A DNA stretch of 12,987 nucleotides, taken from Erysipelotrichaceae bacterium (GTDB lineage Bacteria; Bacillota_I; Bacilli_A; Erysipelotrichales; Erysipelotrichaceae). A model generated the notes under the pieces. The model made no database searches, was not told the origin of the DNA, and saw only the letters and a list, made by a program, of their open reading frames with translations. Shown piece by piece: positions 1,773-12,525 of this stretch. The position numbers were made by a program, and so were the translations under genes. Within the stretch, counting starts at the first letter, position 1. Every line of letters starts with the position of its first letter. The DNA lies in assembly GCA_963586925.1 (NCBI GenBank), contig CAVAAT010000042.1, forward strand, positions 22,289 to 35,275, written 5' to 3'.

Positions 1773-2537
1773 ATGAATATACATGAATATGGCAAAGATA
1801 ATAAAAAAGTCATAGTATTGTTACATCCAGCTGCTGTTAGATGGGATTTCTTTGAAAAAGTGATCCCTTTACTGGAAAATGAATATCATCTGCTCATACC
1901 AGCAATAGTAGGTTATGATGAACAAAATCCTAAGGATGATTTCATCAGTGTTGAAAGTTTCACTGATGAATTAGCTGATTGGTTAAAAGACCATGATATA
2001 AATACTATCGATCTTCTATATGGTTGCAGCATGGGTGGAGCTCTTGCGATACATACCTTTGCGAAAAGAAAAGTAGAGATCTTAAATGTGATAATTGATG
2101 GTGGCATCACTCCTTATCAATTACCTTGGATCATTACTAGGCTAATCGCTATCAGAGATTTCATCGGCTTGTCTTTAGGAAAAATTTTAGGGAATTCTTT
2201 TGTTACTCTTTTGGGTAAAGCTTTTTCTACTAGTGGCTATGATAAAAAAGATTTAGAGTATATCGTAAATGTCTTGCATAGCATGAGCTATAAGACTATT
2301 TGGAATACTTTTGATTCTTGTGATAATTATTCAATGCCAGAAACCATACCTGAATTTAATGGTACTTTCCAATATTGGTATGGACAAAAAGAGAAGAAAA
2401 ATCGTAAACTTGACATAGAATATGTCAAAAAGACTTTCCCATATGCAACTTTCATTGAAATGAAAGATCTAGGCCACGCGTCAATGGCAACTTTACATCC
2501 TTTAGAAACCGTAGAGAGGTTTAATTCTCTATTGTAA
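1773..2537 (+). CDS. alpha/beta-fold hydrolase (esterase/lipase-like), specific substrate unknown
   Basis: 254-aa ORF. Nucleophile elbow G-x-S-x-G is present as GCSMGG. N-terminal VIVLLHPA resembles an oxyanion strand. C-terminal LGHASM is a candidate catalytic His. Double stop TAATAA. Confidence 0.72.
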   Translation: MNIHEYGKDNKKVIVLLHPAAVRWDFFEKVIPLLENEYHLLIPAIVGYDEQNPKDDFISVESFTDELADWLKDHDINTIDLLYGCSMGGALAIHTFAKRKVEILNVIIDGGITPYQLPWIITRLIAIRDFIGLSLGKILGNSFVTLLGKAFSTSGYDKKDLEYIVNVLHSMSYKTIWNTFDSCDNYSMPETIPEFNGTFQYWYGQKEKKNRKLDIEYVKKTFPYATFIEMKDLGHASMATLHPLETVERFNSLL

Positions 2538-2566
2538 TAAACAATTAAGAATAGGAGGTAATTGTT

Positions 2567-3517
2567 TTGAGAAGAAGAAATATCATTATTGATTGCGACC
2601 CTGGTCATGACGATGCCATCGCATTTTTAGTAGCACTAGCTAATCCTAAGTATTTTAATATACTTGGTATCACTACTATCTGTGGTAATTCTACCTTAGA
2701 GAATACTACGAGAAATGCTTTGCAGTTAGTGGAATTCTTTAATGAAGATATTCCTGTAGCTAGTGGCTATGAGCATCCACTTTTAAGAAAAGTCCAGACA
2801 GCTGCTTTTGTTCATGGTGAAAGTGGCATGGCTGGTCCAGTCTTACCTGAGCCAAAGAAGGCAAAGGATAAGAGACACGCTATTGAGTTTTTAAAGGACA
2901 CTATTTCTCAAAGTGATGAAAAAGTGACTTTGATCACTTTAGGTCCTTTGACTAACATTGGCATTTTCTTAAAGACTTATCCTAAATTAAAAGAGAAGAT
3001 TGATTGCATCGCTTTAATGGGTGGTTCTATCTATGGAGGAAATATCTTAGCAAAAGCAGAGTTTAATATCTTCCAAGACCCAGAAGCAGCTAAGATGGTC
3101 TTTGATAGTGGAGTAAAGATAATAATGGCACCTACTGAAGCATGTGATGAAGGTGGCATCTTGTTTACTGAGGTAGAAGAGTTTAAAAAAGGTGGAAGAA
3201 CATCTAAATTAGCTTATGAACTATTTGACTATTATGGTCAATATTGTGCTAAAAATGGTTGGGACAAGACAGTTATCTATGATATGACACCGATTATCTA
3301 CTTGATGCATCCTGAATACTTTGAAACAGAGCAAATGCGAGTAGATATTGAATGTGGTGGACAATATACTAGAGGAATGACAGTATGTGATTTTAGAGGA
3401 GGAGCTCATATTGGTAAGTGTGCTGATCCTAAGACAGTATTGACTCATACTGATAGAAAAAAGTTTGTTCAAGTATTATTTGATGCTCTAAAATATCTTG
3501 ATGAAAAGTATAACTGA
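2567..3517 (+). CDS. nucleoside hydrolase (IUNH/Rih family, inosine-uridine preferring type)
   Basis: 316-aa ORF with a TTG start preceded by TAGGAGG at 2552-2558. The N-terminal family fingerprint DxDxxxDD is present as IIIDCDPGHDDAIA. The length is typical of the family. Confidence 0.87.
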   Translation: MRRRNIIIDCDPGHDDAIAFLVALANPKYFNILGITTICGNSTLENTTRNALQLVEFFNEDIPVASGYEHPLLRKVQTAAFVHGESGMAGPVLPEPKKAKDKRHAIEFLKDTISQSDEKVTLITLGPLTNIGIFLKTYPKLKEKIDCIALMGGSIYGGNILAKAEFNIFQDPEAAKMVFDSGVKIIMAPTEACDEGGILFTEVEEFKKGGRTSKLAYELFDYYGQYCAKNGWDKTVIYDMTPIIYLMHPEYFETEQMRVDIECGGQYTRGMTVCDFRGGAHIGKCADPKTVLTHTDRKKFVQVLFDALKYLDEKYN

Positions 3518-3541
3518 GAGAGTTTGAAACTCTCTTTTTTC
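3516..3541 (+). terminator. rho-independent terminator after the nucleoside hydrolase gene
   Basis: AGAGAGTT (3517-3524) pairs with AACTCTCT (3528-3535) around a short loop. A T-run follows at 3535-3540. The element overlaps the TGA stop. Confidence 0.7.
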
Positions 3542-3570
3542 TTGCAAGAGTCTTGATTTGATATTATCAT
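3542..3570 (+). promoter_or_regulatory. candidate sigma-A promoter for rnr
   Basis: TTGCAA (3542-3547), 17-nt spacer, TATCAT (3565-3570). An alternative extended -10 is TGaTATTAT at 3559-3567. A strong SD AAAGGAGG at 3584-3591 precedes ATG 3598. Motif-level evidence only. Confidence 0.3.
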
Positions 3571-3597
3571 TTTTATTGGATCAAAGGAGGTCAGAAA

Positions 3598-5682
3598 ATG
3601 GAAGAAAAGATATTAGAGATACTTAGTAAAGGCAAAGATTATTCAGCTTTAGAGATCAGTGAACAGTTGAAATTGGCTGCGAAAGAATATACACAGCTAG
3701 TTAAGACATTAAATAAGCTAATTGATGAAGATAAAGTTTTTTTGAATGAACATGAAAGATATGAGTTGATGACTTCTCAAGATTCATTTAAAGGAGATCT
3801 TATTGTTAAGAGAAATGGTAAGAGCTTTGTGTTATTTAGAGGAGAACTTATTGAAGTAAAAAATGCTTATAAGTTCAATTGCTTAAATAATGATGAGATC
3901 GTTTATCGAGTTAGTGGTCATACCGCAAGTATAGTTAGGGTCATTAAGCATAATCTTGTTTATGTTGTAGGTTTGATAAGAGTTAAAAGAGGTAAGACAT
4001 ATTTTTCTTGTGATGATCCTTCTTTTCCTAAAGGTTATAAGATCATCAATTATGAACAATTTGACTTGAGAGATAATGTTAAAGTCAGATGTTATATTTC
4101 TGATTATCAAAAGAAACAACTAAGAATTGAGAAGGTTTTAGGTTTTGCTTATAGCAGTGAAGTAAGAGAATTGTCTATTTTATATTCTCATGATATTTCA
4201 ACGGAGTTTACTAGTACGTGCTTAAATGAGGCGAAGCTATTTACTGATGATGTCAAAGTTGAAGATCATAAAGATAGACATGATTGTACGGATGAGCTCA
4301 TCATCACTATTGATGGGGATGATGCTAAGGATTTTGATGATGCTATCTCAATTGAGAAAGACAAGGAGAACAACTATATTTTAAAGGTTCATATTGCTGA
4401 TGTTTCTCATTATGTAACTATTAATAGTGCTATTGATAAGGAAGCTTTAAAAAGAGGTACTTCTATCTATTATCCAGGACATGTTATCCCTATGCTACCT
4501 AATGCGTTGTCTGATGAACTATGTAGTTTACAACCTAATAAGAACAGACTTGCTATGACTTGTGAGATGCATTATGATGCTTTAGGAAATATGACTAGTT
4601 ATGATATCTATAAGTCAGTCATTAGATCAAAGTATCGTATGACATATAATAAAGTCAATGCGATCTTTGAAGGAGACGAAAAACTCATTAAGCAATATAG
4701 TGGTATATTAGATATGTTAGCTAATGCTAGGGAATTATCTGATAAATTAAAAGCTAAGAGTGCCGAAAAAGGCAGTATTGATTTTGAAAGTGATGATTGC
4801 GACATCATATTGGATAAACAGGGTAAAGTAGTTGATGTCATGGCAGCTGAAACTGGCTTATCACAAGGCATTATTGAATGTTTTATGATCGAAGCTAATA
4901 AGACAGTGGCAAGTCATATGCGTGTTTTAGAATATCCAATGGTCTATCGTAATCATGATCATCCAAAACCTGAAAAGATCGAAGTTTTCTATAACTTAGT
5001 AGAATCGTTAGGTTATCATTTTAAGGGTAAGAAGGATAATATCTATCCTAAACAATTACAAGATTGTTTAAGCTCATTTAAAGATTCTTTAGAATATCCG
5101 ATCATTTCCACATTCTTGTTGCGTTCAATGGCTAAAGCTAAATATGAGAATGATAGTATTGGTCATTTTGGCTTGGGACTAGAGGATTATTGTCATTTTA
5201 CTTCTCCAATAAGAAGATATCCTGATTTACAAGTTCATAGAATGCTTAAGAAATATGTTATTGATCAACCTGATTATTCTTTAATGGCACAAGATAAGTA
5301 TGATAATGCTCTTATCGCTAAGAAATCTTCTGAAAGAGAAGTGGAAGCTACTAAGATTGAAAGAGATATAACTGATCTGTTAAAGTGTGAATATATGTCC
5401 CACCATGTTAATGAAACATTTATGGGGGTTATCTCTTCTACTACCACATATGGTTTTTATGTTAAGTTAGAAAATACTATTGAAGGTTTAGTTCATATTA
5501 GTACTTTACAAGGATTCTATCAGTTAGCTGATGATGGTTCTTTGACTTGTGAAGAGTTCGATAAGTCTTATAAGATAGGTCAGATAGTTAAAGTGCGTTG
5601 TGTTGATGTTAATTTATTAAGACAAGACATTGATTTTGAACTTGTAAGAGAGAGAAAAAAGAAGAATAAGTCAAATATTTAG
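3598..5682 (+). CDS. rnr: ribonuclease R (3'-5' exoribonuclease, RNB family)
   Basis: 694-aa ORF. It has an N-terminal winged-helix-like segment, a cold-shock-like region and the RNB catalytic motif ITIDGDDAKDFDDAIS. Also present are HFGLG...YCHFTSPIRRYPDL, a C-terminal S1 domain (GVISSTTTYGFYVKLENTIEGLVHIS) and a Lys-rich tail. Confidence 0.92.
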   Translation: MEEKILEILSKGKDYSALEISEQLKLAAKEYTQLVKTLNKLIDEDKVFLNEHERYELMTSQDSFKGDLIVKRNGKSFVLFRGELIEVKNAYKFNCLNNDEIVYRVSGHTASIVRVIKHNLVYVVGLIRVKRGKTYFSCDDPSFPKGYKIINYEQFDLRDNVKVRCYISDYQKKQLRIEKVLGFAYSSEVRELSILYSHDISTEFTSTCLNEAKLFTDDVKVEDHKDRHDCTDELIITIDGDDAKDFDDAISIEKDKENNYILKVHIADVSHYVTINSAIDKEALKRGTSIYYPGHVIPMLPNALSDELCSLQPNKNRLAMTCEMHYDALGNMTSYDIYKSVIRSKYRMTYNKVNAIFEGDEKLIKQYSGILDMLANARELSDKLKAKSAEKGSIDFESDDCDIILDKQGKVVDVMAAETGLSQGIIECFMIEANKTVASHMRVLEYPMVYRNHDHPKPEKIEVFYNLVESLGYHFKGKKDNIYPKQLQDCLSSFKDSLEYPIISTFLLRSMAKAKYENDSIGHFGLGLEDYCHFTSPIRRYPDLQVHRMLKKYVIDQPDYSLMAQDKYDNALIAKKSSEREVEATKIERDITDLLKCEYMSHHVNETFMGVISSTTTYGFYVKLENTIEGLVHISTLQGFYQLADDGSLTCEEFDKSYKIGQIVKVRCVDVNLLRQDIDFELVRERKKKNKSNI

Positions 5683-5708
5683 CACTTTGAATTAAAAAGT
5701 GCTAAAAT
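5681..5708 (+). promoter_or_regulatory. perfect 8-N7-8 inverted repeat overlapping an extended -10 like element; weak terminator and/or operator
   Basis: AGCACTTT (5681-5688), 7-nt spacer, AAAGTGCT (5696-5703), starting inside the rnr stop codon. The right arm runs into TGcTAAAAT (5700-5708), an extended -10 consensus about 30 nt upstream of ATG 5739. The downstream T-run is interrupted (AAAATATCTTTT), so it is not a canonical terminator. Confidence 0.3.
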
Positions 5709-5738
5709 ATCTTTTGTGTGAAGGAAAGAAGGAAGAGT

Positions 5739-7109
5739 ATGAAGACTAAGATTGATATATTCTCTGGCTTTTTAGGAGCTGGCAAGACAACATTAATTAG
5801 AAAATTAATTAAAGAAGCTTATAGTGATCAGAAGATCGTGATCATTGAAAATGAATTTGGAGAGATCGGTATTGATGGAGATTTCTTAAAAGATGCAGGT
5901 ATTGAAATAAAAGAAATGAGCCAAGGTTGTATCTGTTGCTCACTTGTTGGTGACTTTACAACGGCTTTAAAGAAAGTCATTGAGGAAATGCAGCCAGAAA
6001 GGATCATCATCGAACCATCAGGTGTTGGTAAATTATCTGATGTCATTAAAGCTGTACAAAATGTTGATAGTGATGATATTGAATTAAGTAGCTTTACTAC
6101 TATCTGCGATGGTAAGAAAGTTGAAATGTACGCTAAAAACTTTGGTGAATTCTACAATGACCAAATTGAACATGCAAATTGCATTGTTATCAGTAGAAGC
6201 CAAGCATTATCTGAAGAAAAGTTAGATGCTATTGTTAAGATGATCAGGGAAAAGAACTCTGTAGCTACCATCATCACAACTCCTTGGGATGATATCAGTG
6301 GTGAAAAGATCGTTGAGACAATGGAACATAAAGATACATTAAATACAGAACTAGAAAAGTTAAAAGAAGAAGTTGAACATGAGCATCATCATCACGATGA
6401 GGATGAAGATGACGATCATGAGTGTTGTTGCCACCACCATCACGATGAGGATGAAGATGACGATCATGAGTGTTGTTGCCACCATCATCACGATGAAGAT
6501 GAGGATGATGATCATGAGTGTTGTTGCCACCATCATCACGATGAGGATGAAGATGACGATCATGAGTGTTGTTGCCACCACCATCACGATGAGGATGAAG
6601 ATGACGATCATGAGTGTTGTTGCCACCATCATCACGATGAAGATGAAGATGAAGATGACGATCATGAGTGTTGTTGCCACCACCATCACGATGAAGATGA
6701 AGATGATGATCATGAGTGTTGTTGCCATCACCATCACGATGAAGATGAGGATGATGAGCATGAGTGTTGTTGTCACCATCATCACGATGAAGATGAAGAA
6801 CATGAACATCACCACCACCATCATGCTGATGAGATCTTTACTAGTTGGGGAAAAGAAACGAACCACAAGTATAGTAAAGAAGAGATTGCTAATATCTTGA
6901 AACAATTAGATGATCAAGATAAATATGGTATTGTCTTAAGGGCTAAAGGTATTGTTGAAGGTAAAGATGGTAAGTGGATCTATTTTGATTATGTACCTGA
7001 AGAGACCGATATCAGAGATGGCAATGCGATCGCTATGGGTAGATTCTGTGTCATTGGTTCTAAGATGGATCAAGAAGCAATTGAAAAGTTATTTGGTAAT
7101 AAGGAATAG
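5739..7109 (+). CDS. COG0523 / CobW-family G3E GTPase metallochaperone with a giant His/Cys/Asp/Glu repeat linker
   Basis: P-loop GFLGAGKTT at 5766-5792. CxCC metal motif GCICCS (Cys codons 5928-5939). Walker B-like IIIEPSGVG. CobW_C-type tail (GIVLRAKGIV...FCVIGSKMD). I prefer ATG 5739, with AAGGAAG about 6 nt upstream, over the track's GTG 5718, which has no SD. This gives 456 aa. Confidence 0.9.
   Translation: MKTKIDIFSGFLGAGKTTLIRKLIKEAYSDQKIVIIENEFGEIGIDGDFLKDAGIEIKEMSQGCICCSLVGDFTTALKKVIEEMQPERIIIEPSGVGKLSDVIKAVQNVDSDDIELSSFTTICDGKKVEMYAKNFGEFYNDQIEHANCIVISRSQALSEEKLDAIVKMIREKNSVATIITTPWDDISGEKIVETMEHKDTLNTELEKLKEEVEHEHHHHDEDEDDDHECCCHHHHDEDEDDDHECCCHHHHDEDEDDDHECCCHHHHDEDEDDDHECCCHHHHDEDEDDDHECCCHHHHDEDEDEDDDHECCCHHHHDEDEDDDHECCCHHHHDEDEDDEHECCCHHHHDEDEEHEHHHHHHADEIFTSWGKETNHKYSKEEIANILKQLDDQDKYGIVLRAKGIVEGKDGKWIYFDYVPEETDIRDGNAIAMGRFCVIGSKMDQEAIEKLFGNKE
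6384..6824 (+). repeat. in-frame 48-bp tandem repeat, 8 full units plus one partial, each encoding HHHHDEDEDDDHECCC
   Basis: Hand-aligned unit starts are 6384, 6432, 6480, 6528, 6576, 6624 (54 bp, extra GAAGAT), 6678 and 6726. A degenerate ninth unit spans 6774-6824 (HHHHDEDEEHEHHHHHH). Units 2 and 5 are identical over 48 nt. Confidence 0.95.
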
Positions 7110-7111
7110 TT

Positions 7112-8062
7112 ATGGATACTAATGAAAGACCTGTTTATGTTTTTACCGGCTTTTTAGAGTCTGGTAAGACTAGTTTCATCATTGAAAATATTTCTAATCC
7201 TGCCTTTTGTGCACCAGGAGAGATGACGGTTGTCATTGCTTGTGAAGACGGGGAGAAACAATATGATGAAGTTGAATCTGATGAGATCAAAGTTGTTTAT
7301 GTATCAGAACAAGATGATCTGACTTATGATTATTGTATGCAACTTCAACAACAATATGATCCTGATAAGATCATCATTGAATATAATGGTATGTGGAATA
7401 TAAATGATTTGTACCAGATCATACCAGAAAATTGGCTGATCGTGCAACAGATCAATGTTGCAGATGCTTCTACTTTCTTAGCTTACAATACGATGTTTAG
7501 AAACCTTATGGTTGAAAAGATCGCAGGAGCTGAGTTTATGTTGTTCAATAGAGTCAATCACGATGATGATAAGATGCAATATCATAAGGTCGTAAGACAA
7601 GTAAATCGTAAGTGTGAAATTGCTTATGAATATACTGATGGTCAGGGTGAATATGATGATATTGTTGATCCACTACCATTTGATATGAATGCAGATGTCA
7701 TTGATATTGAATTTAGGGATTATGCTTTATGGATCCAAGATGTTGTTCAGAATTATGATAAGTATGTTGGTAAAAAAGTTAAAGTAATAGCTAAAGCTGT
7801 ACCGAATGATAAATTAGAAAATAATTCATTTAGTTTTGGCAGAAGAGTTATGACTTGTTGTGTGGCTGATATCAAGTTTATGGGACTTGTTTGCGAGAAC
7901 TTAACTGATGAAGAAGTGAAATTACCTGCTTGGTATGAAGTTGAAGCTGAATTCTGTTGTGGTTATCAAAAAATATTTAATGCTAAAGTTCCTTATCTTA
8001 AAGCCTATAATATAAGAGAAGTTGATATTCCTGCAGAAGATGAAGTGGCTACTTTCTATTAA
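7112..8062 (+). CDS. degenerate G3E/CobW-like NTPase paralog (no CxCC) fused to a Cys-rich C-terminal domain with an MTCCxAD motif (DUF1980/TIGR03943-C-like)
   Basis: ATG lies 2 nt after the upstream stop, and AAGGAA at 7100-7105 serves as SD. N-terminus PVYVFTGFLESGKTSFI (P-loop at 7148-7174) parallels the upstream gene. IIIEYNGMW parallels IIIEPSGVG. No CxCC is present and there is no CobW_C RAKG tail. The C-terminal region has RRVMTCCVADIKFMGLVC (7850-7870 encodes MTCCVAD) and FCCGY (Cys codons 7955-7960). Confidence 0.7.
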   Translation: MDTNERPVYVFTGFLESGKTSFIIENISNPAFCAPGEMTVVIACEDGEKQYDEVESDEIKVVYVSEQDDLTYDYCMQLQQQYDPDKIIIEYNGMWNINDLYQIIPENWLIVQQINVADASTFLAYNTMFRNLMVEKIAGAEFMLFNRVNHDDDKMQYHKVVRQVNRKCEIAYEYTDGQGEYDDIVDPLPFDMNADVIDIEFRDYALWIQDVVQNYDKYVGKKVKVIAKAVPNDKLENNSFSFGRRVMTCCVADIKFMGLVCENLTDEEVKLPAWYEVEAEFCCGYQKIFNAKVPYLKAYNIREVDIPAEDEVATFY

Positions 8063-8087
8063 AAAGAGCTAGCTCACTTCTTTTTTT
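8042..8087 (+). terminator. probable rho-independent terminator closing the GTPase pair
   Basis: GAAGTGGCT (8042-8050) pairs with AGC-T-CACTTC (8071-8080), with one bulged T and a loop of about 20 nt. T7 follows at 8081-8087. The left arm lies in the last codons of the CDS. Confidence 0.4.
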
Positions 8088-8112: not shown

Positions 8113-8595
8113 ATGAAAAAAAGAGTTTTATTTATTTCTAGTACTGGTGGTCACTTAGATGAATTATTACAACTTAAAGCTATGTTTGATAAATATGACT
8201 ATCACATCATTACAGAAAAGACAAAAGCTAATATGAGTTTAAAAGAAAAATATCCAGGTAAAGTATCATATCTTACTTATGGTACTTATACTGGTCTTGT
8301 CAATAAGTGTATCTATCCTTTTAAACTTTTGTGGAATACTTTAAAGTCATTTGTGTTTTATTGTAAGTACAGACCACAATATGTTGTATCTACTGGTGCT
8401 CATACTGCAGGTCCAATGTGTCTTATTGCTCATTTGTTAGGCAGTAAGGTCATCTTTATTGAAACATTTGCTAATAGCAATTCTAGAAGTAAGTGTGGTT
8501 CTATTGTCTATAAGTTTGCTGACTTGTTCATTGTGCAATGGGAAAGCATGTTAGAACAATATCCTAATGCTGTTTATGGGGGGTGGATATTTTGA
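8113..8595 (+). CDS. Alg14-like / PssD / Cps14F-family glycosyltransferase accessory (membrane-anchoring) subunit
   Basis: 160-aa ORF. GGTGAG SD at 8104-8109. N-terminal LFISSTGGHLDEL (the SxGGH motif typical of Alg14/PssD). Its size and position directly upstream of an Alg13-like gene fit the family. Confidence 0.75.
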   Translation: MKKRVLFISSTGGHLDELLQLKAMFDKYDYHIITEKTKANMSLKEKYPGKVSYLTYGTYTGLVNKCIYPFKLLWNTLKSFVFYCKYRPQYVVSTGAHTAGPMCLIAHLLGSKVIFIETFANSNSRSKCGSIVYKFADLFIVQWESMLEQYPNAVYGGWIF

Positions 8596-9071
8596 TCTTA
8601 GTAACTTTGGGTACGCAAGATAAACAATTTAATCGTTTACTTGAGGCAGTACAAAAAGCCATTAATGAAGGCTATATCAAAGATAAAGTAGTAGTACAAG
8701 CAGGTTATACCCATTTTGAAAGTAAGGATATGGAGATCTTTGATCTTATTGATAGAGAAAAGTTTTCTAGTTTAATTGCTGAATGTGATATTCTAATCAC
8801 CCATGGTGGAGTAGGATCTATTCTTACAGGTTTAAAAAATGGTAAGAAAGTCATTGCTTGTCCTAGACTTGCGAAGTATCAAGAACATGTCAATGACCAT
8901 CAAAAGCAGATTATTGAAAGATTTTATCAAGCCCATCTATTAATCAAACTTGATGAAAATGATGATCTTGGAAAAGTCATAGAACAAACAAAGGATTTTG
9001 TGCCAGAGAAGTTTGTAAGTAATAATGCTAACTTCGTAAAGATGGTAGAAGAGTTTATTGATAATAATTAG
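8583..9071 (+). CDS. Alg13-like / PssE / Cps14G-family glycosyltransferase catalytic subunit (GT28 C-terminal domain)
   Basis: ILVTLGTQDKQFNRLL and ITHGGVGSIL match the Glyco_tran_28_C pattern (fVTvGt..F..L, sHaGaGsi). Start is GTG 8583 or, perhaps better, TTG 8592. TTG 8592 forms a TTGA start/stop overlap with the upstream TGA (8593-8595) and sits 8 nt after the G-run at 8578-8583. Confidence 0.75.
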   Translation: MDILILVTLGTQDKQFNRLLEAVQKAINEGYIKDKVVVQAGYTHFESKDMEIFDLIDREKFSSLIAECDILITHGGVGSILTGLKNGKKVIACPRLAKYQEHVNDHQKQIIERFYQAHLLIKLDENDDLGKVIEQTKDFVPEKFVSNNANFVKMVEEFIDNN

Positions 9072-9099
9072 AAAAATGATATATGGATATCATTTTTTT
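9072..9099 (+). terminator. rho-independent terminator
   Basis: ATGATAT (9076-9082), loop ATGG, ATATCAT (9087-9093). The stem is extendable by A/T pairs and is followed by T6 at 9094-9099, immediately after stop TAG 9069-9071. Confidence 0.8.
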
Positions 9100-9244
9100 G
9101 CTTTTAACCGTTTATATTGTTAAGAATTGTTTAATAATCATTAAAAATGTTCTCATTAATTAAATAAAAAGTTAAAATACTAAAGTATGTTGGGCACTAT
9201 TGGAAAGGGGTAAACGATTAGATCGTTGTTTGAAATTGATTAGT

Positions 9245-10090
9245 ATGGAACAGTTAGAAAAAGCAACAGGTGAGTTAAGAAGATTACAATTAAAAATGTT
9301 AGATATAATAAAGGATATTGATAAACTTTGTAAAGAAAATGAAATTCAGTATTATATCTTTTATGGTTCAGCTTTGGGGGCAGTAAGGCACAAAGGATTT
9401 ATTCCTTGGGATGATGATTTTGATATTGCGATGACTTATGATAATTACATAAAGTTCATTAAGATAGCAGAAGAAAAAATGGATAAGAGCAAATATTTCA
9501 TTCAAACCCCTGGGAAAGAAAAAGAATATTACCTACAATTTACTAAGATCAGAGATATCAATACAACTTTAATCGAAAATTTTAATAAAGATAAAAATGT
9601 AGTGCGCAGTGTTTTTGTTGATGTTTTCCCACTTGTAGGAGCACCTACAAGTAAGATTGGTTGGTTCTTTTTTAAACTAGATAGGGCTTTTGTCCTTTCG
9701 TGCGATAACAACATCATTCGTAGTAAGGCATTGTATTCGTTTTTTAAAGTCATGTTAAAAATATTTGGTAAAGAAAAGATCATTAAGCATTTTGGTAAAA
9801 AATGTACGAAATATGATGTTAACAAAAGTGAACAAGTCGTCTCATTTGCGGACACTTGGGCATTAGAAAAATCAACTTACTCTAAAAAAGCCTTAGGTAG
9901 ACCAACTTATGTAGAGTTTGAAGATACTATTTTACCGATCCCAGAAGATTATGACAGTATATTAAGGAATATATATGGAAATTATATGCAGATTCCAAGT
10001 AAAGAAGAAAGAAAAAGAGCTGAACATTCACGTTACTTTCTTGACTTAGATATGCCATATGCTCAGTATATTAAAAATCTAGAAAAGTAG
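9245..10090 (+). CDS. licD: LicD-family phosphotransferase (phosphocholine/polyol-phosphate transferase family)
   Basis: YGSALGAVRHKGFIPWDDDFDIAM is the LicD signature. I prefer ATG 9245 (MEQLEK...) by alignment with the second paralog's N-terminus. The track's TTG 9200 has no SD. Neither start has a good SD, so the start is uncertain. Confidence 0.82.
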   Translation: MEQLEKATGELRRLQLKMLDIIKDIDKLCKENEIQYYIFYGSALGAVRHKGFIPWDDDFDIAMTYDNYIKFIKIAEEKMDKSKYFIQTPGKEKEYYLQFTKIRDINTTLIENFNKDKNVVRSVFVDVFPLVGAPTSKIGWFFFKLDRAFVLSCDNNIIRSKALYSFFKVMLKIFGKEKIIKHFGKKCTKYDVNKSEQVVSFADTWALEKSTYSKKALGRPTYVEFEDTILPIPEDYDSILRNIYGNYMQIPSKEERKRAEHSRYFLDLDMPYAQYIKNLEK

Positions 10091-10115
10091 GAATTATTTT
10101 TAGTGAGGTGATAGT

Positions 10116-11597
10116 TTGAAAAATAAGTTTATTAAAAATAGCATTGTGTTAGTGTATGTTTTGCTACCTATCATAGAAATGTTAAGAGCAACATCTTTAA
10201 AGAATGTCGAGATATTTAATATTGCTCTTATCGAACTGGTGAATATTCTATTGATCTCTTTTGCTTTTGCTTGCTTCTTTTTTACTAAAACGGACAAAAA
10301 ATTAAAAATAAAGATAATGTTGTTTGCTGCGATATTTGTGATATATATAATTTTACATTGTATCAATAATGCTAATTTTGATTCTTCTATCTTGCCAGAC
10401 ACCAATATAAGCTATTTTGTAGAGGTATATTATATTTTAAGACAATATGTTTTACCCCTTATGATGCTGATGCTATTAAAATGGTGTGATGATATCTTTG
10501 ATAGAGATTTTTACCTGAAGATTGTTAGGTATTTCACTTATATTTGTTGTGGATCGATCGTTATCTTGAATTTATGCCGATTCTCTTATAATTCATACAC
10601 GAGTGCAGATAATGAGTATGCCATAAATACAAGTTGTATATTTGACTTGATCAATTATGATGGTAACTTAAAAAATCTATTTACTTGCGGCTTATTTCCT
10701 TCCGCAAACAGACTTTCGATCGTATTATTGATGTTATTACCTTACAATGTCATGAATTTGTACTATGAAAAAAAGATAAGAAATGTTTTGCAGCTTTGCT
10801 TACAGGTATTAGCTATGTTCATTATCGGTACTAAGACTGCGGCTCTTGGTTCATTATTGACTGTTACTTGTTTATTGCTTGCTTATTTCTTCTTTATGAT
10901 AGTTAAACGCAAATATTATAAGTTTAATGATTATGTAGTCAAATTGGCATGTGTTGTAGCCTTCGCTTTTGTTTGTATGTGTGTTACACCTTTTGGACAT
11001 TATTTTTCTCAAACTACATCACTGACTAATAAACTTACTGAAAAAGAGCAACTCATCTACGATAGCTTAGATAATGTTGAAGATGATGATCTACAACAAT
11101 ATCTTTATGATAACAAGACCGTTTTTAAGATTAATGAGTCCTTTTTTGAATATTATCCTGTAGAAAATGATACTGAGTTTTGGCGAATGATCGCTAAAAG
11201 GAAAAGAAGTTTGAATAATGATTATCGTAATTTGAAAGTAACAATACTTGAAAGAGTTGAAGAAAGAAATAACAATCCATTAGATAAATACTTAGGAATG
11301 GGTTATACCATCAACTTCCCTGATGCAGAAAGAGATTATATTTATCAATACTATTTGTTTGGCATAAGTGGTATATTATTACTGATAGTTCCATATGTTG
11401 TTGAATATCTAAAAAAAATACGGGTATTCTTACATAAGAGAGAGTTTACTTATGCTAATTGCTTTGGCTTATTAGCGGGTTTTTTAGGCATAGTTGGTGC
11501 TTACTTTTCTGGACATTTATTTGGTTGGACTGGACCAATGTTCATTTTAGTATTTGTTATGGGATATCAGAAGAGGTTGCATAAAGATGAAAGTTAG
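10116..11597 (+). CDS. polytopic membrane protein, O-antigen ligase / Wzy-type polymerase family
   Basis: 493 aa. TTG start with GAGGTGA at 10104-10110. About 11-12 hydrophobic segments by eye. IIGTKTAALGSLL resembles the Wzy_C motif (GSRxxxLal). A hydrophilic loop of about 100 aa follows it, then 2-3 more TM segments. Confidence 0.6.
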   Translation: MKNKFIKNSIVLVYVLLPIIEMLRATSLKNVEIFNIALIELVNILLISFAFACFFFTKTDKKLKIKIMLFAAIFVIYIILHCINNANFDSSILPDTNISYFVEVYYILRQYVLPLMMLMLLKWCDDIFDRDFYLKIVRYFTYICCGSIVILNLCRFSYNSYTSADNEYAINTSCIFDLINYDGNLKNLFTCGLFPSANRLSIVLLMLLPYNVMNLYYEKKIRNVLQLCLQVLAMFIIGTKTAALGSLLTVTCLLLAYFFFMIVKRKYYKFNDYVVKLACVVAFAFVCMCVTPFGHYFSQTTSLTNKLTEKEQLIYDSLDNVEDDDLQQYLYDNKTVFKINESFFEYYPVENDTEFWRMIAKRKRSLNNDYRNLKVTILERVEERNNNPLDKYLGMGYTINFPDAERDYIYQYYLFGISGILLLIVPYVVEYLKKIRVFLHKREFTYANCFGLLAGFLGIVGAYFSGHLFGWTGPMFILVFVMGYQKRLHKDES

Positions 11598-12525
11598 TGT
11601 TATTGTACCGGTATATAATACCCAAGATTATTTAAGAAAATGTCTTGATAGTTTAATACAACAAGATTTTGAGGATTATGAGATCGTTGTTGTTAATGAT
11701 GGCTCACCAGATGAAAGTCAAAATATCATTGATGAGTATAAGAAAAATCCAATCATTAAATCTTATGTAAAGGTTAATGGTGGTCTGTCTGATGCACGAA
11801 ACTATGGTTTGGATAGGGCAGAAGGTGAGTATATAGCTTTTGTTGATAGTGATGATTACATCAAAAGTGATATGTTGAGAAAAATGTATGACAAAGCTAA
11901 AAAAGATGATCTTGATGTAGTAGTATGTGATAGTATCAATGTTTATCCTGATGGTAATGAAGTGCTTGTTCATTCAAACTTACATTATAGTGATGATGAA
12001 GTTAAAAATTACTTGATAGCTGCACCTATGGCTTGTACTAGGATGTTTAAAAGAGAAATTTTTGATAATATTAAGTTTAAAGTTGGCATCTACTATGAAG
12101 ATCTACATTTATGTCCAAAAGTGGTAAATTTAACAAATAAGATTGGATTTGTCGAAGAGGGCTTGTATTATTACTATCAAAGAGATGATTCAATAATGAA
12201 ACAAAAGAAGTTTAATAATAAACTTCTAGATATATTTACTGTCTTACAATCTAATAAGGATATGTTAGGAAAAGATCATCCACTAGAAATTGAGTATATG
12301 TATATCACTCATTTATTAAGAACAGCGTCATTAAGATTCTTAGAATATGATAATCCAAAAGAATATTTAAATAAAATTAATGATATTTTTAGGAATGATT
12401 ATCCTAATTGGAGAAAGAATATCTATTATAAGAAATCTAGTTACAAGTTAAAACTTATTTGTAACTTGTCTTATATGAAAATGTATGGTTTATTAAAACT
12501 GATCAAAAAGATAACAAATAAATGA
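11587..12525 (+). CDS. family 2 glycosyltransferase (GT-A fold)
   Basis: MKVSVIVPVYN, VVVNDGSPDES and the DxD motif FVDSDD. ATG 11587 with AAGAGG at 11571-11576 overlaps the upstream stop (11595-11597) by 11 nt. The track's 11554 start adds 11 residues not typical of GT2 enzymes. Confidence 0.88.
   Translation: MKVSVIVPVYNTQDYLRKCLDSLIQQDFEDYEIVVVNDGSPDESQNIIDEYKKNPIIKSYVKVNGGLSDARNYGLDRAEGEYIAFVDSDDYIKSDMLRKMYDKAKKDDLDVVVCDSINVYPDGNEVLVHSNLHYSDDEVKNYLIAAPMACTRMFKREIFDNIKFKVGIYYEDLHLCPKVVNLTNKIGFVEEGLYYYYQRDDSIMKQKKFNNKLLDIFTVLQSNKDMLGKDHPLEIEYMYITHLLRTASLRFLEYDNPKEYLNKINDIFRNDYPNWRKNIYYKKSSYKLKLICNLSYMKMYGLLKLIKKITNK

Follow-up and report, generated by a model that had tools for sequence, protein, structure and literature searches.

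A stretch of 12,987 nucleotides (nt) from an Erysipelotrichaceae bacterium (contig CAVAAT010000042.1; the whole stretch is hereafter called the window, and positions are counted along it) carries two adjacent genes, named here gene A and gene B, which form an obligate pair in the genomes where they were followed. Gene A codes for a G3E nucleoside triphosphatase (NTPase) of the COG0523 type, and gene B for a divergent relative of its nucleotide-binding domain (G-domain), fused to the Cys-Cys domain DUF1980_C. That the two products act together as a co-translated, two-protein G3E module of the COG0523 type, handling metal and conserved in anaerobic Clostridia and Erysipelotrichia, is a reading to which we give about even chances. 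Judged from the sequences, what is new is a two-protein COG0523 system in which a degenerate paralogue is fused to a permease-associated Cys-Cys domain, an arrangement that appears widespread and mechanistically suggestive.

The pair bears on two questions, namely how COG0523 proteins find their partners and what DUF1980 does. COG0523 proteins occur in all kingdoms and are important under metal starvation; few of their partners or clients are known, and the current model treats them as self-contained monomers whose GTPase-activating (GAP) domain works in cis. To our knowledge, no COG0523 protein with an obligate degenerate paralogue as its partner has been described. The A-B pair, strictly conserved in hundreds of species of gut anaerobes and having as one member a paralogue devoid of CxCC and of the C-terminal domain (CTD), would therefore test in a natural setting if two COG0523 G-domains form working heterodimers, or if the CTD acts in trans.

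The two genes are separated by 2 nt (7110-7111) and the Shine-Dalgarno sequence of gene B lies within the last codons of gene A, as had been reported in a preliminary description of the locus made from the sequence alone. All the peptide strings quoted there (PVYVFTGFLESGKTSFI, IIIEYNG, SEQDD, CEDGEKQYD, MTCCVAD, LVC and FCC) were located, and its domain assignments agree with the Pfam matches for both proteins, that is, cobW and CobW_C in gene A, cobW and DUF1980_C in gene B.

5739-7109, + strand: gene A, from ATG 5739 to TAG 7107-7109; 456 amino acids (aa); COG0523-type G3E NTPase made of G-domain, His/Cys/Asp/Glu linker and CobW_C domain
7101-7106, + strand: Shine-Dalgarno sequence AAGGAA of gene B, 5 nt 5' of ATG 7112
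7112-8062, + strand: gene B, from ATG 7112; 316 aa; divergent G3E domain fused to a DUF1980_C domain with a predicted oligonucleotide/oligosaccharide-binding (OB) fold

Gene A and its His/Cys-rich linker

The Pfam cobW profile (PF02492) matches gene A over aa 7-178 (E 2.3e-37, 128.7 bits), and the CobW_C profile (PF07683) scores 25.1 bits against a cutoff of 22. In two sets of 74 and 28 orthologues, the motifs GFLGAGKTT, IENEFGEIGIDG, GCICCSLVGDF, IEPSGVGKLSD and LRAKG are invariant or nearly so. These include the CxCC motif, which, placed after switch I, defines COG0523 (PMC2770081), and the RxKG motif, invariant in CobW_C domains, which acts as the arginine finger when the CTD of a COG0523 protein stimulates GTP hydrolysis, be it in cis or in trans (PMC13001444).

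5766-5792, + strand: Walker A (G1) motif GFLGAGKTT, aa 10-18; invariant in 28 and 74 orthologues
5847-5864, + strand: switch I motif ENEFGE, aa 37-42
5928-5939, + strand: CxCC motif (C64-I-C66-C67), within GCICCS at aa 63-68; invariant in 28 and 74 orthologues
6390-6799, + strand: 48-nt in-frame tandem repeat, 8.4 copies with 91% match, encoding the HHHHDEDEDDDHECCC units of the linker
6840-7097, + strand: CobW_C domain, aa 368-453
6939-6950, + strand: RxKG arginine-finger motif LRAKG, aa 400-404; invariant in the orthologues

Gene A thus has in common with YjiA, ZigA, ZagA/YciC, CobW, Nha3 and ZNG1 the cobW G-domain, CxCC, ENEFGE, ExxG, a variable His-rich linker and a CobW_C domain with RxKG. 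Unlike these proteins, it carries SR[ST] in place of the G4 motif [NT]KxD: aa 152-155 (6192-6203) read SRSQ here and SR[ST]x in the orthologues, with Lys changed to Arg and no Asp. It also lies far below the NCBIfam equivalog cutoffs, all of which it misses (88.9 bits vs 332.1 for CobW, TIGR02475; 83.3 vs 600 for ZigA, NF038288; 80.9 vs 361 for the YjiA-type PRK11537, NF008578; 94.7 vs 180 for NF041053), and its linker is extreme in length and Cys-rich as well as His-rich. By its defining features, namely the P-loop domain, CxCC and CobW_C with RxKG, gene A is a member of COG0523 with an atypical G4, falling within no named equivalog. The earlier term "canonical" is therefore an overstatement in view of its G4 and its extraordinary linker, the latter omitted from the preliminary description. 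The best NCBIfam match of gene A is also that of the N-terminal domain (N-domain) of gene B (24.5 bits, likewise below the cutoff of 180): it is NF041053, "CobW-related selenoprotein", a family of stand-alone G-domains of 195 residues, which may be the nearest named relative of the A/B lineage.

The linker comprises 176 aa of low complexity, with 53 His, 24 Cys and 83 Asp and Glu residues, a composition that makes it a putative multi-site metal reservoir. A His/Cys-rich tract of 42-161 aa is present in every gene A orthologue of the surveyed loci. Its repeat units are lineage-specific and consist of HEHE runs, DHDEECxC units or EGCC units. The Hpn protein of Helicobacter pylori, with its His runs and EEGCC motifs, resembles this linker, and such a hypervariable tract may represent a high-capacity metal buffer relevant to the metal economy of the gut. 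In the three closest relatives (L001-L003), whose gene B is 93% identical, only 3-4 repeat units are found, compared with about 8 here, and gene A measures 379-400 aa vs 456; the copy number is therefore either variable or collapsed in short-read assemblies.

The repeat has consequences for gene calling as well. It produces spurious long open reading frames (ORFs) at 6360-6905 (- strand) and 6373-6900 (+ strand). Many database homologues of gene A are truncated "partial" entries of 190-270 aa, and in one locus (L211, 4001-5151) gene A is broken up into two ORFs, one with the G-domain (326 aa) and one with CobW_C (57 aa). Such entries likely derive from contig breaks or frameshifts within the repeat, and automated annotation of the gene A family is therefore unreliable.

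Gene B: a divergent G3E domain

Both PF02492 and the DUF1980_C profile (PF21537) match the gene B product above cutoff, which was the outcome that the preliminary description had expected of a search with hidden Markov models (HMMs).

7130-7615, + strand: G3E-like domain, aa 7-168; PF02492 E 1.9e-8, 34.5 bits vs cutoff 20.7
7148-7171, + strand: P-loop GFLESGKT; GFL[ED]xGK[TS] is invariant in the family
aa 44-48, + strand: switch I CEDGE, an E-x-G-E remnant of ENEFGE
aa 90-93, + strand: Walker B motif EYNG of the ExxG type; E90-x-N92-G93 is invariant
7547-7558, + strand: degenerate G4, NRxx at aa 146-149 (FNR at aa 145-147), with Arg for Lys and no Asp
7685-8038, + strand: DUF1980_C (PF21537), aa 192-309; E 4.6e-19, 68.9 bits vs cutoff 25.9; predicted OB-fold beta-barrel
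7850-7870, + strand: MTCCVAD, aa 247-253; invariant Cys-Cys-x-x-Asp core of DUF1980_C, putative metal site

Profile-profile comparison of the two families with hhalign aligned them from the P-loop through G4 (97.6% probability, E 3.5e-12), identifying the N-domain of gene B as a paralogue of the G-domain of gene A. In this alignment the GCICCS loop of gene A falls in a 7-residue deletion of gene B, with variable flanking columns. The CxCC loop has accordingly been deleted, and not replaced by SEQDD as first proposed. The two genes share the derived change in G4, with K changed to R and Asp lost. This is in line with descent of gene B from an ancestor resembling A, or with use of one nucleotide by both proteins, possibly without guanine specificity, and hints at an altered nucleotide specificity common to A and B. 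The AlphaFold2 model of gene B (predicted local distance difference test 93.1, predicted template modelling score 0.75) was searched with Foldseek, and the N-domain matched HypB (2hf8 and 2wsm best) and YjiA with probability 1.00, followed by SIMIBI GTPases of the signal recognition particle (SRP) type.

In 97 family sequences that are 41-45% identical (about 43%) to the window protein, the residues G13, F14, L15, G18, K19, E45, G47, E90, N92 and G93 are invariant, and T20 is conserved in at least 90%. Aligned to YjiA, these are the Gly, Lys and Thr of Walker A, the E-x-G-E of switch I and the ExxG of Walker B, which argues for retained binding of nucleotide and Mg. The term "pseudo-GTPase", by which the protein had been described, is therefore unsupported, and gene B is probably not one. 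Similarly, the view that CEDGEKQYD takes the place of ENEFGEIGIDG is right in that switch I is divergent and incomplete in that the E-x-G-E of ENEFGE is kept. In addition, C44 in switch I is nearly invariant and lies next to the position of the YjiA metal ligand E37.

The same residues bear on the idea that gene B codes for a scaffold devoid of catalysis, a pseudo-NTPase in the strict sense, which would bind no nucleotide and would tether DUF1980_C to A or regulate A allosterically. The degenerate G4 (FNR, no Asp), the acidic residue at the fourth P-loop position (GFL[ED]xGK) and the loss of both CxCC and CobW_C would all fit, as would the faster evolution of B, which shows about 43% identity vs about 68% for A in the same taxa. 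We nevertheless consider this idea improbable: the invariant residues of the N-domain are precisely those of nucleotide and Mg binding (G13, G18, K19, T20, E45, G47, E90, G93), and A itself has the same G4 change.

With respect to the described COG0523 proteins, then, gene B has a homologous G-domain and, unlike them, neither CxCC nor a PF07683 match, and hence no RxKG domain. A search of a plasmid collection gave an unannotated stretch of Paenibacillus cellulosilyticus (H3, NZ_CP054613.1 952935-953453) that matches only aa 8-165 of gene B (29% identity, E 2e-5); it may code for a G3E relative that likewise lacks CxCC and whose C-terminus differs.

Gene B: the DUF1980_C domain

The C-terminal domain of gene B bears out the earlier statement that R-x-x-M-T-C-C-x-A-D marks DUF1980 proteins. 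Its NCBIfam match to TIGR03943 covers the C-terminal half only (profile 98-219 of 221) with 59.9 bits vs a cutoff of 88.8, and neither a PF09323 match nor any hydrophobic segment was found in the protein. Taken with the COG0523 features listed above, these profiles place gene B in the Pfam cobW superfamily as a member that carries DUF1980_C and falls outside both COG0523 and TIGR03943 as they are defined. The five Cys residues noted earlier in this domain are present, of which only C249 and C250 are invariant, FCC being specific to the window sequence. A core consisting of R244, M-T-C-C, D253, W274 and a late Pro is common to the gene B type and to 101 classical DUF1980 proteins; the DDIEDPLPFD junction, KYxGK and a C-terminal ATFY are invariants of gene B that the classical proteins lack. 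Within this core, the R-x-x-M-T-C-C-x-x-D motif of gene B is a candidate thiolate metal site.

The fold of the domain raises another possibility, since its best Foldseek matches are OB-folds that bind single-stranded DNA (ssDNA), namely TEN1 of TEN1/STN1 (8d0b_C, TM score 0.60 over 103 columns), mtSSB (1s3o_A) and the N-domain of MCM. The OB-fold might thus have a nucleic acid or some other macromolecule as its ligand, with a nucleotide switch controlling the binding and with no role in metal handling; the metabolism of RNA or of ribosomes would be one setting for such a function. The position of the pair after the RNase R gene in the window is compatible with this, yet the RNase R neighbourhood is not conserved, and the invariant residues are Cys-Cys-x-x-Asp, not aromatic or basic ones of the ssDNA-binding kind. 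Moreover, partner A has every hallmark of a metal chaperone together with a poly-His/Cys tract, and classical DUF1980 proteins pair with permeases. A non-metal function of this sort is in our opinion very improbable.

The pair across genomes

Essentially all the matches listed in a protein search with gene B measure 312-320 aa and have the same PF21537 architecture, with or without PF02492. The matches listed belong to Erysipelotrichia, Lachnospiraceae, Oscillospiraceae and further Clostridia; their database names do not go beyond "GTP-binding protein", "GTPase" or hypothetical. Relatives of gene B occur in at least 595 stretches of one-genome-per-species contigs of Clostridia and Erysipelotrichia, and an HMM scan of 1.84 billion cluster representatives gave 591 clusters (50% identity) at E <=1e-30. 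Cultured carriers among species-representative genomes include Ruminococcus albus 8 and Anaeromassilibacillus senegalensis, and further cultured carriers in a plasmid/chromid collection are Vescimonas fastidiosa and Subdoligranulum variabile. The three tblastn matches in the plasmid collection were all of the paired type or limited to the N-domain, with no classical DUF1980 protein among them.

Pairing was assessed by calling ORFs in the fetched loci and searching them with the two domains of gene A, which was possible for 74 loci with enough upstream DNA. A gene with cobW and CobW_C lies upstream of gene B on the same strand in all 74 loci, and it is directly adjacent in 72 of them. The junctions have a median gap of 9.5 nt; the gap is 35 nt or less in 66 of the 74 loci, and 13 pairs overlap. 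Conversely, in a search that started from the G-domain of gene A, gene B followed in all three homologues sampled. The A-B pairing is obligate, and the preliminary description, which had made the adjacency of orthologues a test of its proposal, is upheld from both sides. The two exceptions both belong to Ruminococcus (L031, R. albus 8, 4631-5866; L067, a related metagenome-assembled genome, 4550-5830) and have a gene between A and B. The inserted protein is soluble, has 411-426 aa and a duplicated internal motif W..HIFT.EE...L..G..(I/V)SF, and gave no Pfam match; it may be an unrelated insertion.

Apart from A and B, the clustering of neighbouring ORFs in 80 loci revealed no third conserved gene: what recurs are ABC ATPases of a generic kind, whose position varies, and spurious ORFs on the antisense strand of the repeat. 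No permease was found in the neighbourhoods of about 12 kilobases (kb) of these 80 loci, by ORF clustering and, for six loci, Pfam annotations. No Zur/Fur/PerR-type box was found in the 250 nt upstream of gene A in 72 loci, although clostridial operators may differ; the 8-mers enriched there are -10-like and A/T-rich words only, and two loci come within 3 mismatches of the Zur core. An Rfam scan of the whole window detected no riboswitch or other RNA family. The absence of a nearby client, transporter or Zur-type box had been reported before for the window, and neighbourhood clustering, upstream motif search and Rfam scan agree with it. A-B is, in other words, a self-contained two-gene module that is mobile in context.

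These data also bear on the simplest alternative, which is co-transcription only: two independent G3E proteins would be encoded in one operon and be coupled neither physically nor functionally. The two Ruminococcus loci, which tolerate an insertion of 1.4-1.6 kb between the genes, would be in keeping with it. Near-universal adjacency in Firmicutes of at least two classes, with unconserved contexts and overlapping or very short junctions, speaks against it, and we regard it as very improbable.

Precomputed Pfam annotations display this architecture, and the RefSeq names of the two products are "CobW family GTP-binding protein" and "GTP-binding protein"; a literature search found no paper describing the pair and no functional study of the DUF1980 domain. 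Typical Clostridia-type pairs also occur in genome bins that bear the names Bacteroides stercoris, Barnesiella intestinihominis and Flexilinea sp. (L017, L065 and L080). Mis-binning of these contigs is more probable than a presence of the module outside Firmicutes.

Classical DUF1980 proteins and the link to permeases

A word-index protein search with the C-terminal domain of gene B alone gave no matches, and the classical sample was drawn from 120 metagenomic loci with R..MTCCxADA, retrieved by a degenerate DNA pattern. Hydrophobic segments (1-6, mostly 2-3) precede the motif in 100 of the 101 classical ORFs with enough N-terminus, compared with none in gene B. The same-strand upstream neighbour is usually a protein with at least 5 transmembrane segments; the three neighbours tested were all PF03773 (ArsP_1) permeases, and the DUF1980 ORFs themselves matched PF09323 and PF21537. 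The membrane anchor and YcgR-type permease that had been described for classical DUF1980 proteins are thus both found. The G-domain is absent from all the classical ORFs sampled. With respect to the classical DUF1980/TIGR03943 systems (YcgQ of Bacillus subtilis, ScfB of Streptococcus pyogenes and SMU.747 of Streptococcus mutans, with the permease YcgR or ScfA), gene B has PF21537 and the R-x-x-M-T-C-C-x-x-D...W core in common. It differs in having a G3E domain where the classical proteins have the PF09323 anchor, and a COG0523 gene as its neighbour (72 of 74 loci), with no adjacent ArsP_1 gene.

A COG0523-like ORF lies within 3 kb of a classical DUF1980 gene in 8 of 88 loci (about 9%), one of which (L108) has the gene order permease-DUF1980-CobW. 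This is a minority of the sampled loci, and the statement that classical DUF1980 genes often neighbour COG0523 genes was too strong. With 1-3 COG0523 genes per genome, a rough estimate of chance proximity is well under 1%, so that a genomic link between DUF1980 and COG0523, occasional as it is and independent of the fusion, looks real.

The classical arrangement underlies a reading proposed in the preliminary description, in which gene B would be a soluble substitute for the membrane DUF1980 subunit, docking through DUF1980_C on a distant ArsP_1-type permease and coupling the metal delivered by A, or the nucleotide state, to import or export. Such a docking adaptor would be consistent with the PF03773 permease that accompanies classical DUF1980_C, with the core motif common to B and the classical type and with the permease-DUF1980-COG0523 order of L108. 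The neighbourhoods of about 12 kb of the 80 loci, in which ORF clustering and, for six loci, Pfam annotations revealed no permease, argue against it, and so do the surfaces that are invariant in B (DPLPFD, KYxGK and the ATFY end) and absent from classical proteins; we hold it to be rather unlikely.

A possible mechanism

In the reading of A and B as one metal-handling module, gene A would be a metal-binding NTPase by virtue of its CxCC site, ENEFGE switch I and RxKG C-terminal domain, and its long, fast-evolving His/Cys/Asp/Glu tract would hold several ions in reserve. Gene B, as a paralogue of the A G-domain, would have kept the nucleotide-binding residues while the CxCC loop was deleted and CobW_C lost, the OB-fold DUF1980_C domain with its CC motif taking the place of the latter. 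Nucleotide-dependent association of the G-domains would then move metal between the CxCC site or reservoir of A and the Cys-Cys site of B, which would be the acceptor or exit. Two geometries can be envisaged, namely a SIMIBI-style heterodimer of G-domains resembling HypB and UreG, or an action in trans of the RxKG domain of A, on its unusually long tether, on the CTD-less B. The sequences themselves establish domain identities, conserved motifs, paralogy and the pairing of the genes; from these we infer that A and B form a physical complex, that the CC motif and the linker bind metal, in which direction the transfer runs and which metal is involved. This metal is most likely Zn(II), the default metal for COG0523, with Ni or Co as possible alternatives; the combination of His runs and Cys clusters is reminiscent of Ni-storage proteins, Hpn and His-rich HypB among them.

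The nearest precedent for the first geometry is offered by G3E proteins without CTD and CxCC, since UreG and HypB work as GTP-stabilised dimers (PMC13001444) that exchange metal with a separate partner, UreE or HypA (PMC13001444, PMC11672702). The best structural matches of the gene B N-domain are, in fact, HypB proteins. Some HypB proteins also have poly-His storage tracts. HypB and UreG differ from the present case in that each forms homodimers whose interface holds a Cys/His site, while here A keeps CxCC and B has lost it, and no hydrogenase or urease genes are linked to the A-B pair. By analogy only, the SIMIBI heterodimers SRP54/FtsY and Nbp35/Cfd1 illustrate the concept of two paralogous domains in a composite nucleotide-dependent dimer. 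SRP GTPases are among the structural matches of gene B, with no specific sequence relationship, and the A-B heterodimer is putative, as is the division into a storing and a docking subunit suggested in the preliminary description.

A number of points weigh against the proposed module. COG0523 proteins are thought to be monomeric, with a CTD docked on the G-domain that would hinder dimerisation, which is contrary to the first geometry in particular (PMC11672702). No metal-responsive operator was found upstream in the 72 loci and no metal riboswitch in the window; with no client or transporter linked, the connection to metal comes solely from family membership and composition. Both proteins lack the guanine-specifying NKxD, which leaves their nucleotide uncertain as well. 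Metals are less often the ligands of OB-folds than nucleic acids or proteins. Finally, the predicted template modelling score of 0.75 leaves the inter-domain geometry of gene B uncertain.

The fusion itself constitutes a Rosetta-stone link, placing the Cys-Cys domain DUF1980_C in the cytoplasm beside a metal-chaperone NTPase domain, and it thereby suggests, in a form open to test, that the YcgQ/ScfB family, needed for the virulence of group A Streptococcus, may handle metal. A bolder version, unlikely in our estimate though the most far-reaching, would be that DUF1980_C serves in general to hand over metal through thiolates, coupling NTPases of the COG0523 type to their destination. In most bacteria the domain is anchored next to an ArsP_1 permease, and in gut Clostridia and Erysipelotrichia it would have been fused to a degenerate G3E domain. 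In this version, A:B would be an obligate heterodimeric, nucleotide-gated metal store, with the poly-His/Cys tract as reservoir and one tethered arginine-finger CTD serving two G-domains. If so, A:B would represent the first heteromeric COG0523 machine, and YcgQR, ScfAB and SMU.746-747 would be metal transporters served by a nucleotide-dependent chaperone, which would explain their virulence and acid-stress phenotypes. At present, YcgQ, ScfB and SMU.747 are described only as putative membrane partners of the permease, with virulence, acid-stress and biofilm phenotypes (PMC5584981).

Flanking signals and neighbouring genes

The window is AT-rich (about 32% G+C), and all its substantial ORFs are on the + strand. 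A GTG at 5718 was considered as an alternative start of gene A and rejected: the orthologues begin at the equivalent of 5739 (MTKIDIFSGF), which supports ATG 5739. Two hairpins bracket the pair.

5678-5706, + strand: stem-loop between the RNase R gene and gene A; 11-bp stem, dG -12.6 kcal/mol, z -5.25
8042-8087, + strand: intrinsic-terminator-like hairpin (8042-8080) and T7 run, with the 5' arm within the last gene B codons

The first hairpin, previously placed at 5681-5703, folds better than all 200 shuffled sequences (0/200 fold equally well). It lies directly at the stop of the RNase R gene (5682), ends 32 nt 5' of the gene A start and resembles a terminator of the RNase R gene. It overlaps a weak site of promoter-like sequence (TTAGCA-N18-TAAAAT with TG, 5679-5708). 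The second hairpin is bulged (dG -15.6 kcal/mol), straddles the gene B stop and is followed by T7, in agreement with the terminator previously proposed at 8042-8087, although its z is only -2.2 and 7 of 200 shuffles fold equally well. A simple terminator scan made no call at 8042-8087 because of the bulge and the 9-nt loop.

On the 3' side of the pair (8113-12525) lies a cluster of genes for cell-surface glycans, whose Pfam labels are taken from the syntenic locus L001 of the closest relative.

8113-8595 and 8583-9071: split Alg14/Alg13-like glycosyltransferase (label from L001)
9200-10090: LicD-family protein (label from L001)
10116-11597: O-antigen-ligase-like membrane protein (label from L001)
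11554-12525: GT2 glycosyltransferase (label from L001)

On the upstream side, synteny with the same relative differs (1773-3598 in the window vs 3089-6687 in L001). L001 has a 391-aa gene of no known type and an MBOAT gene between the nucleoside hydrolase and RNase R genes, both missing from the window; the window alone has a 254-aa ORF (1773-2537) between the M32 peptidase and nucleoside hydrolase genes.

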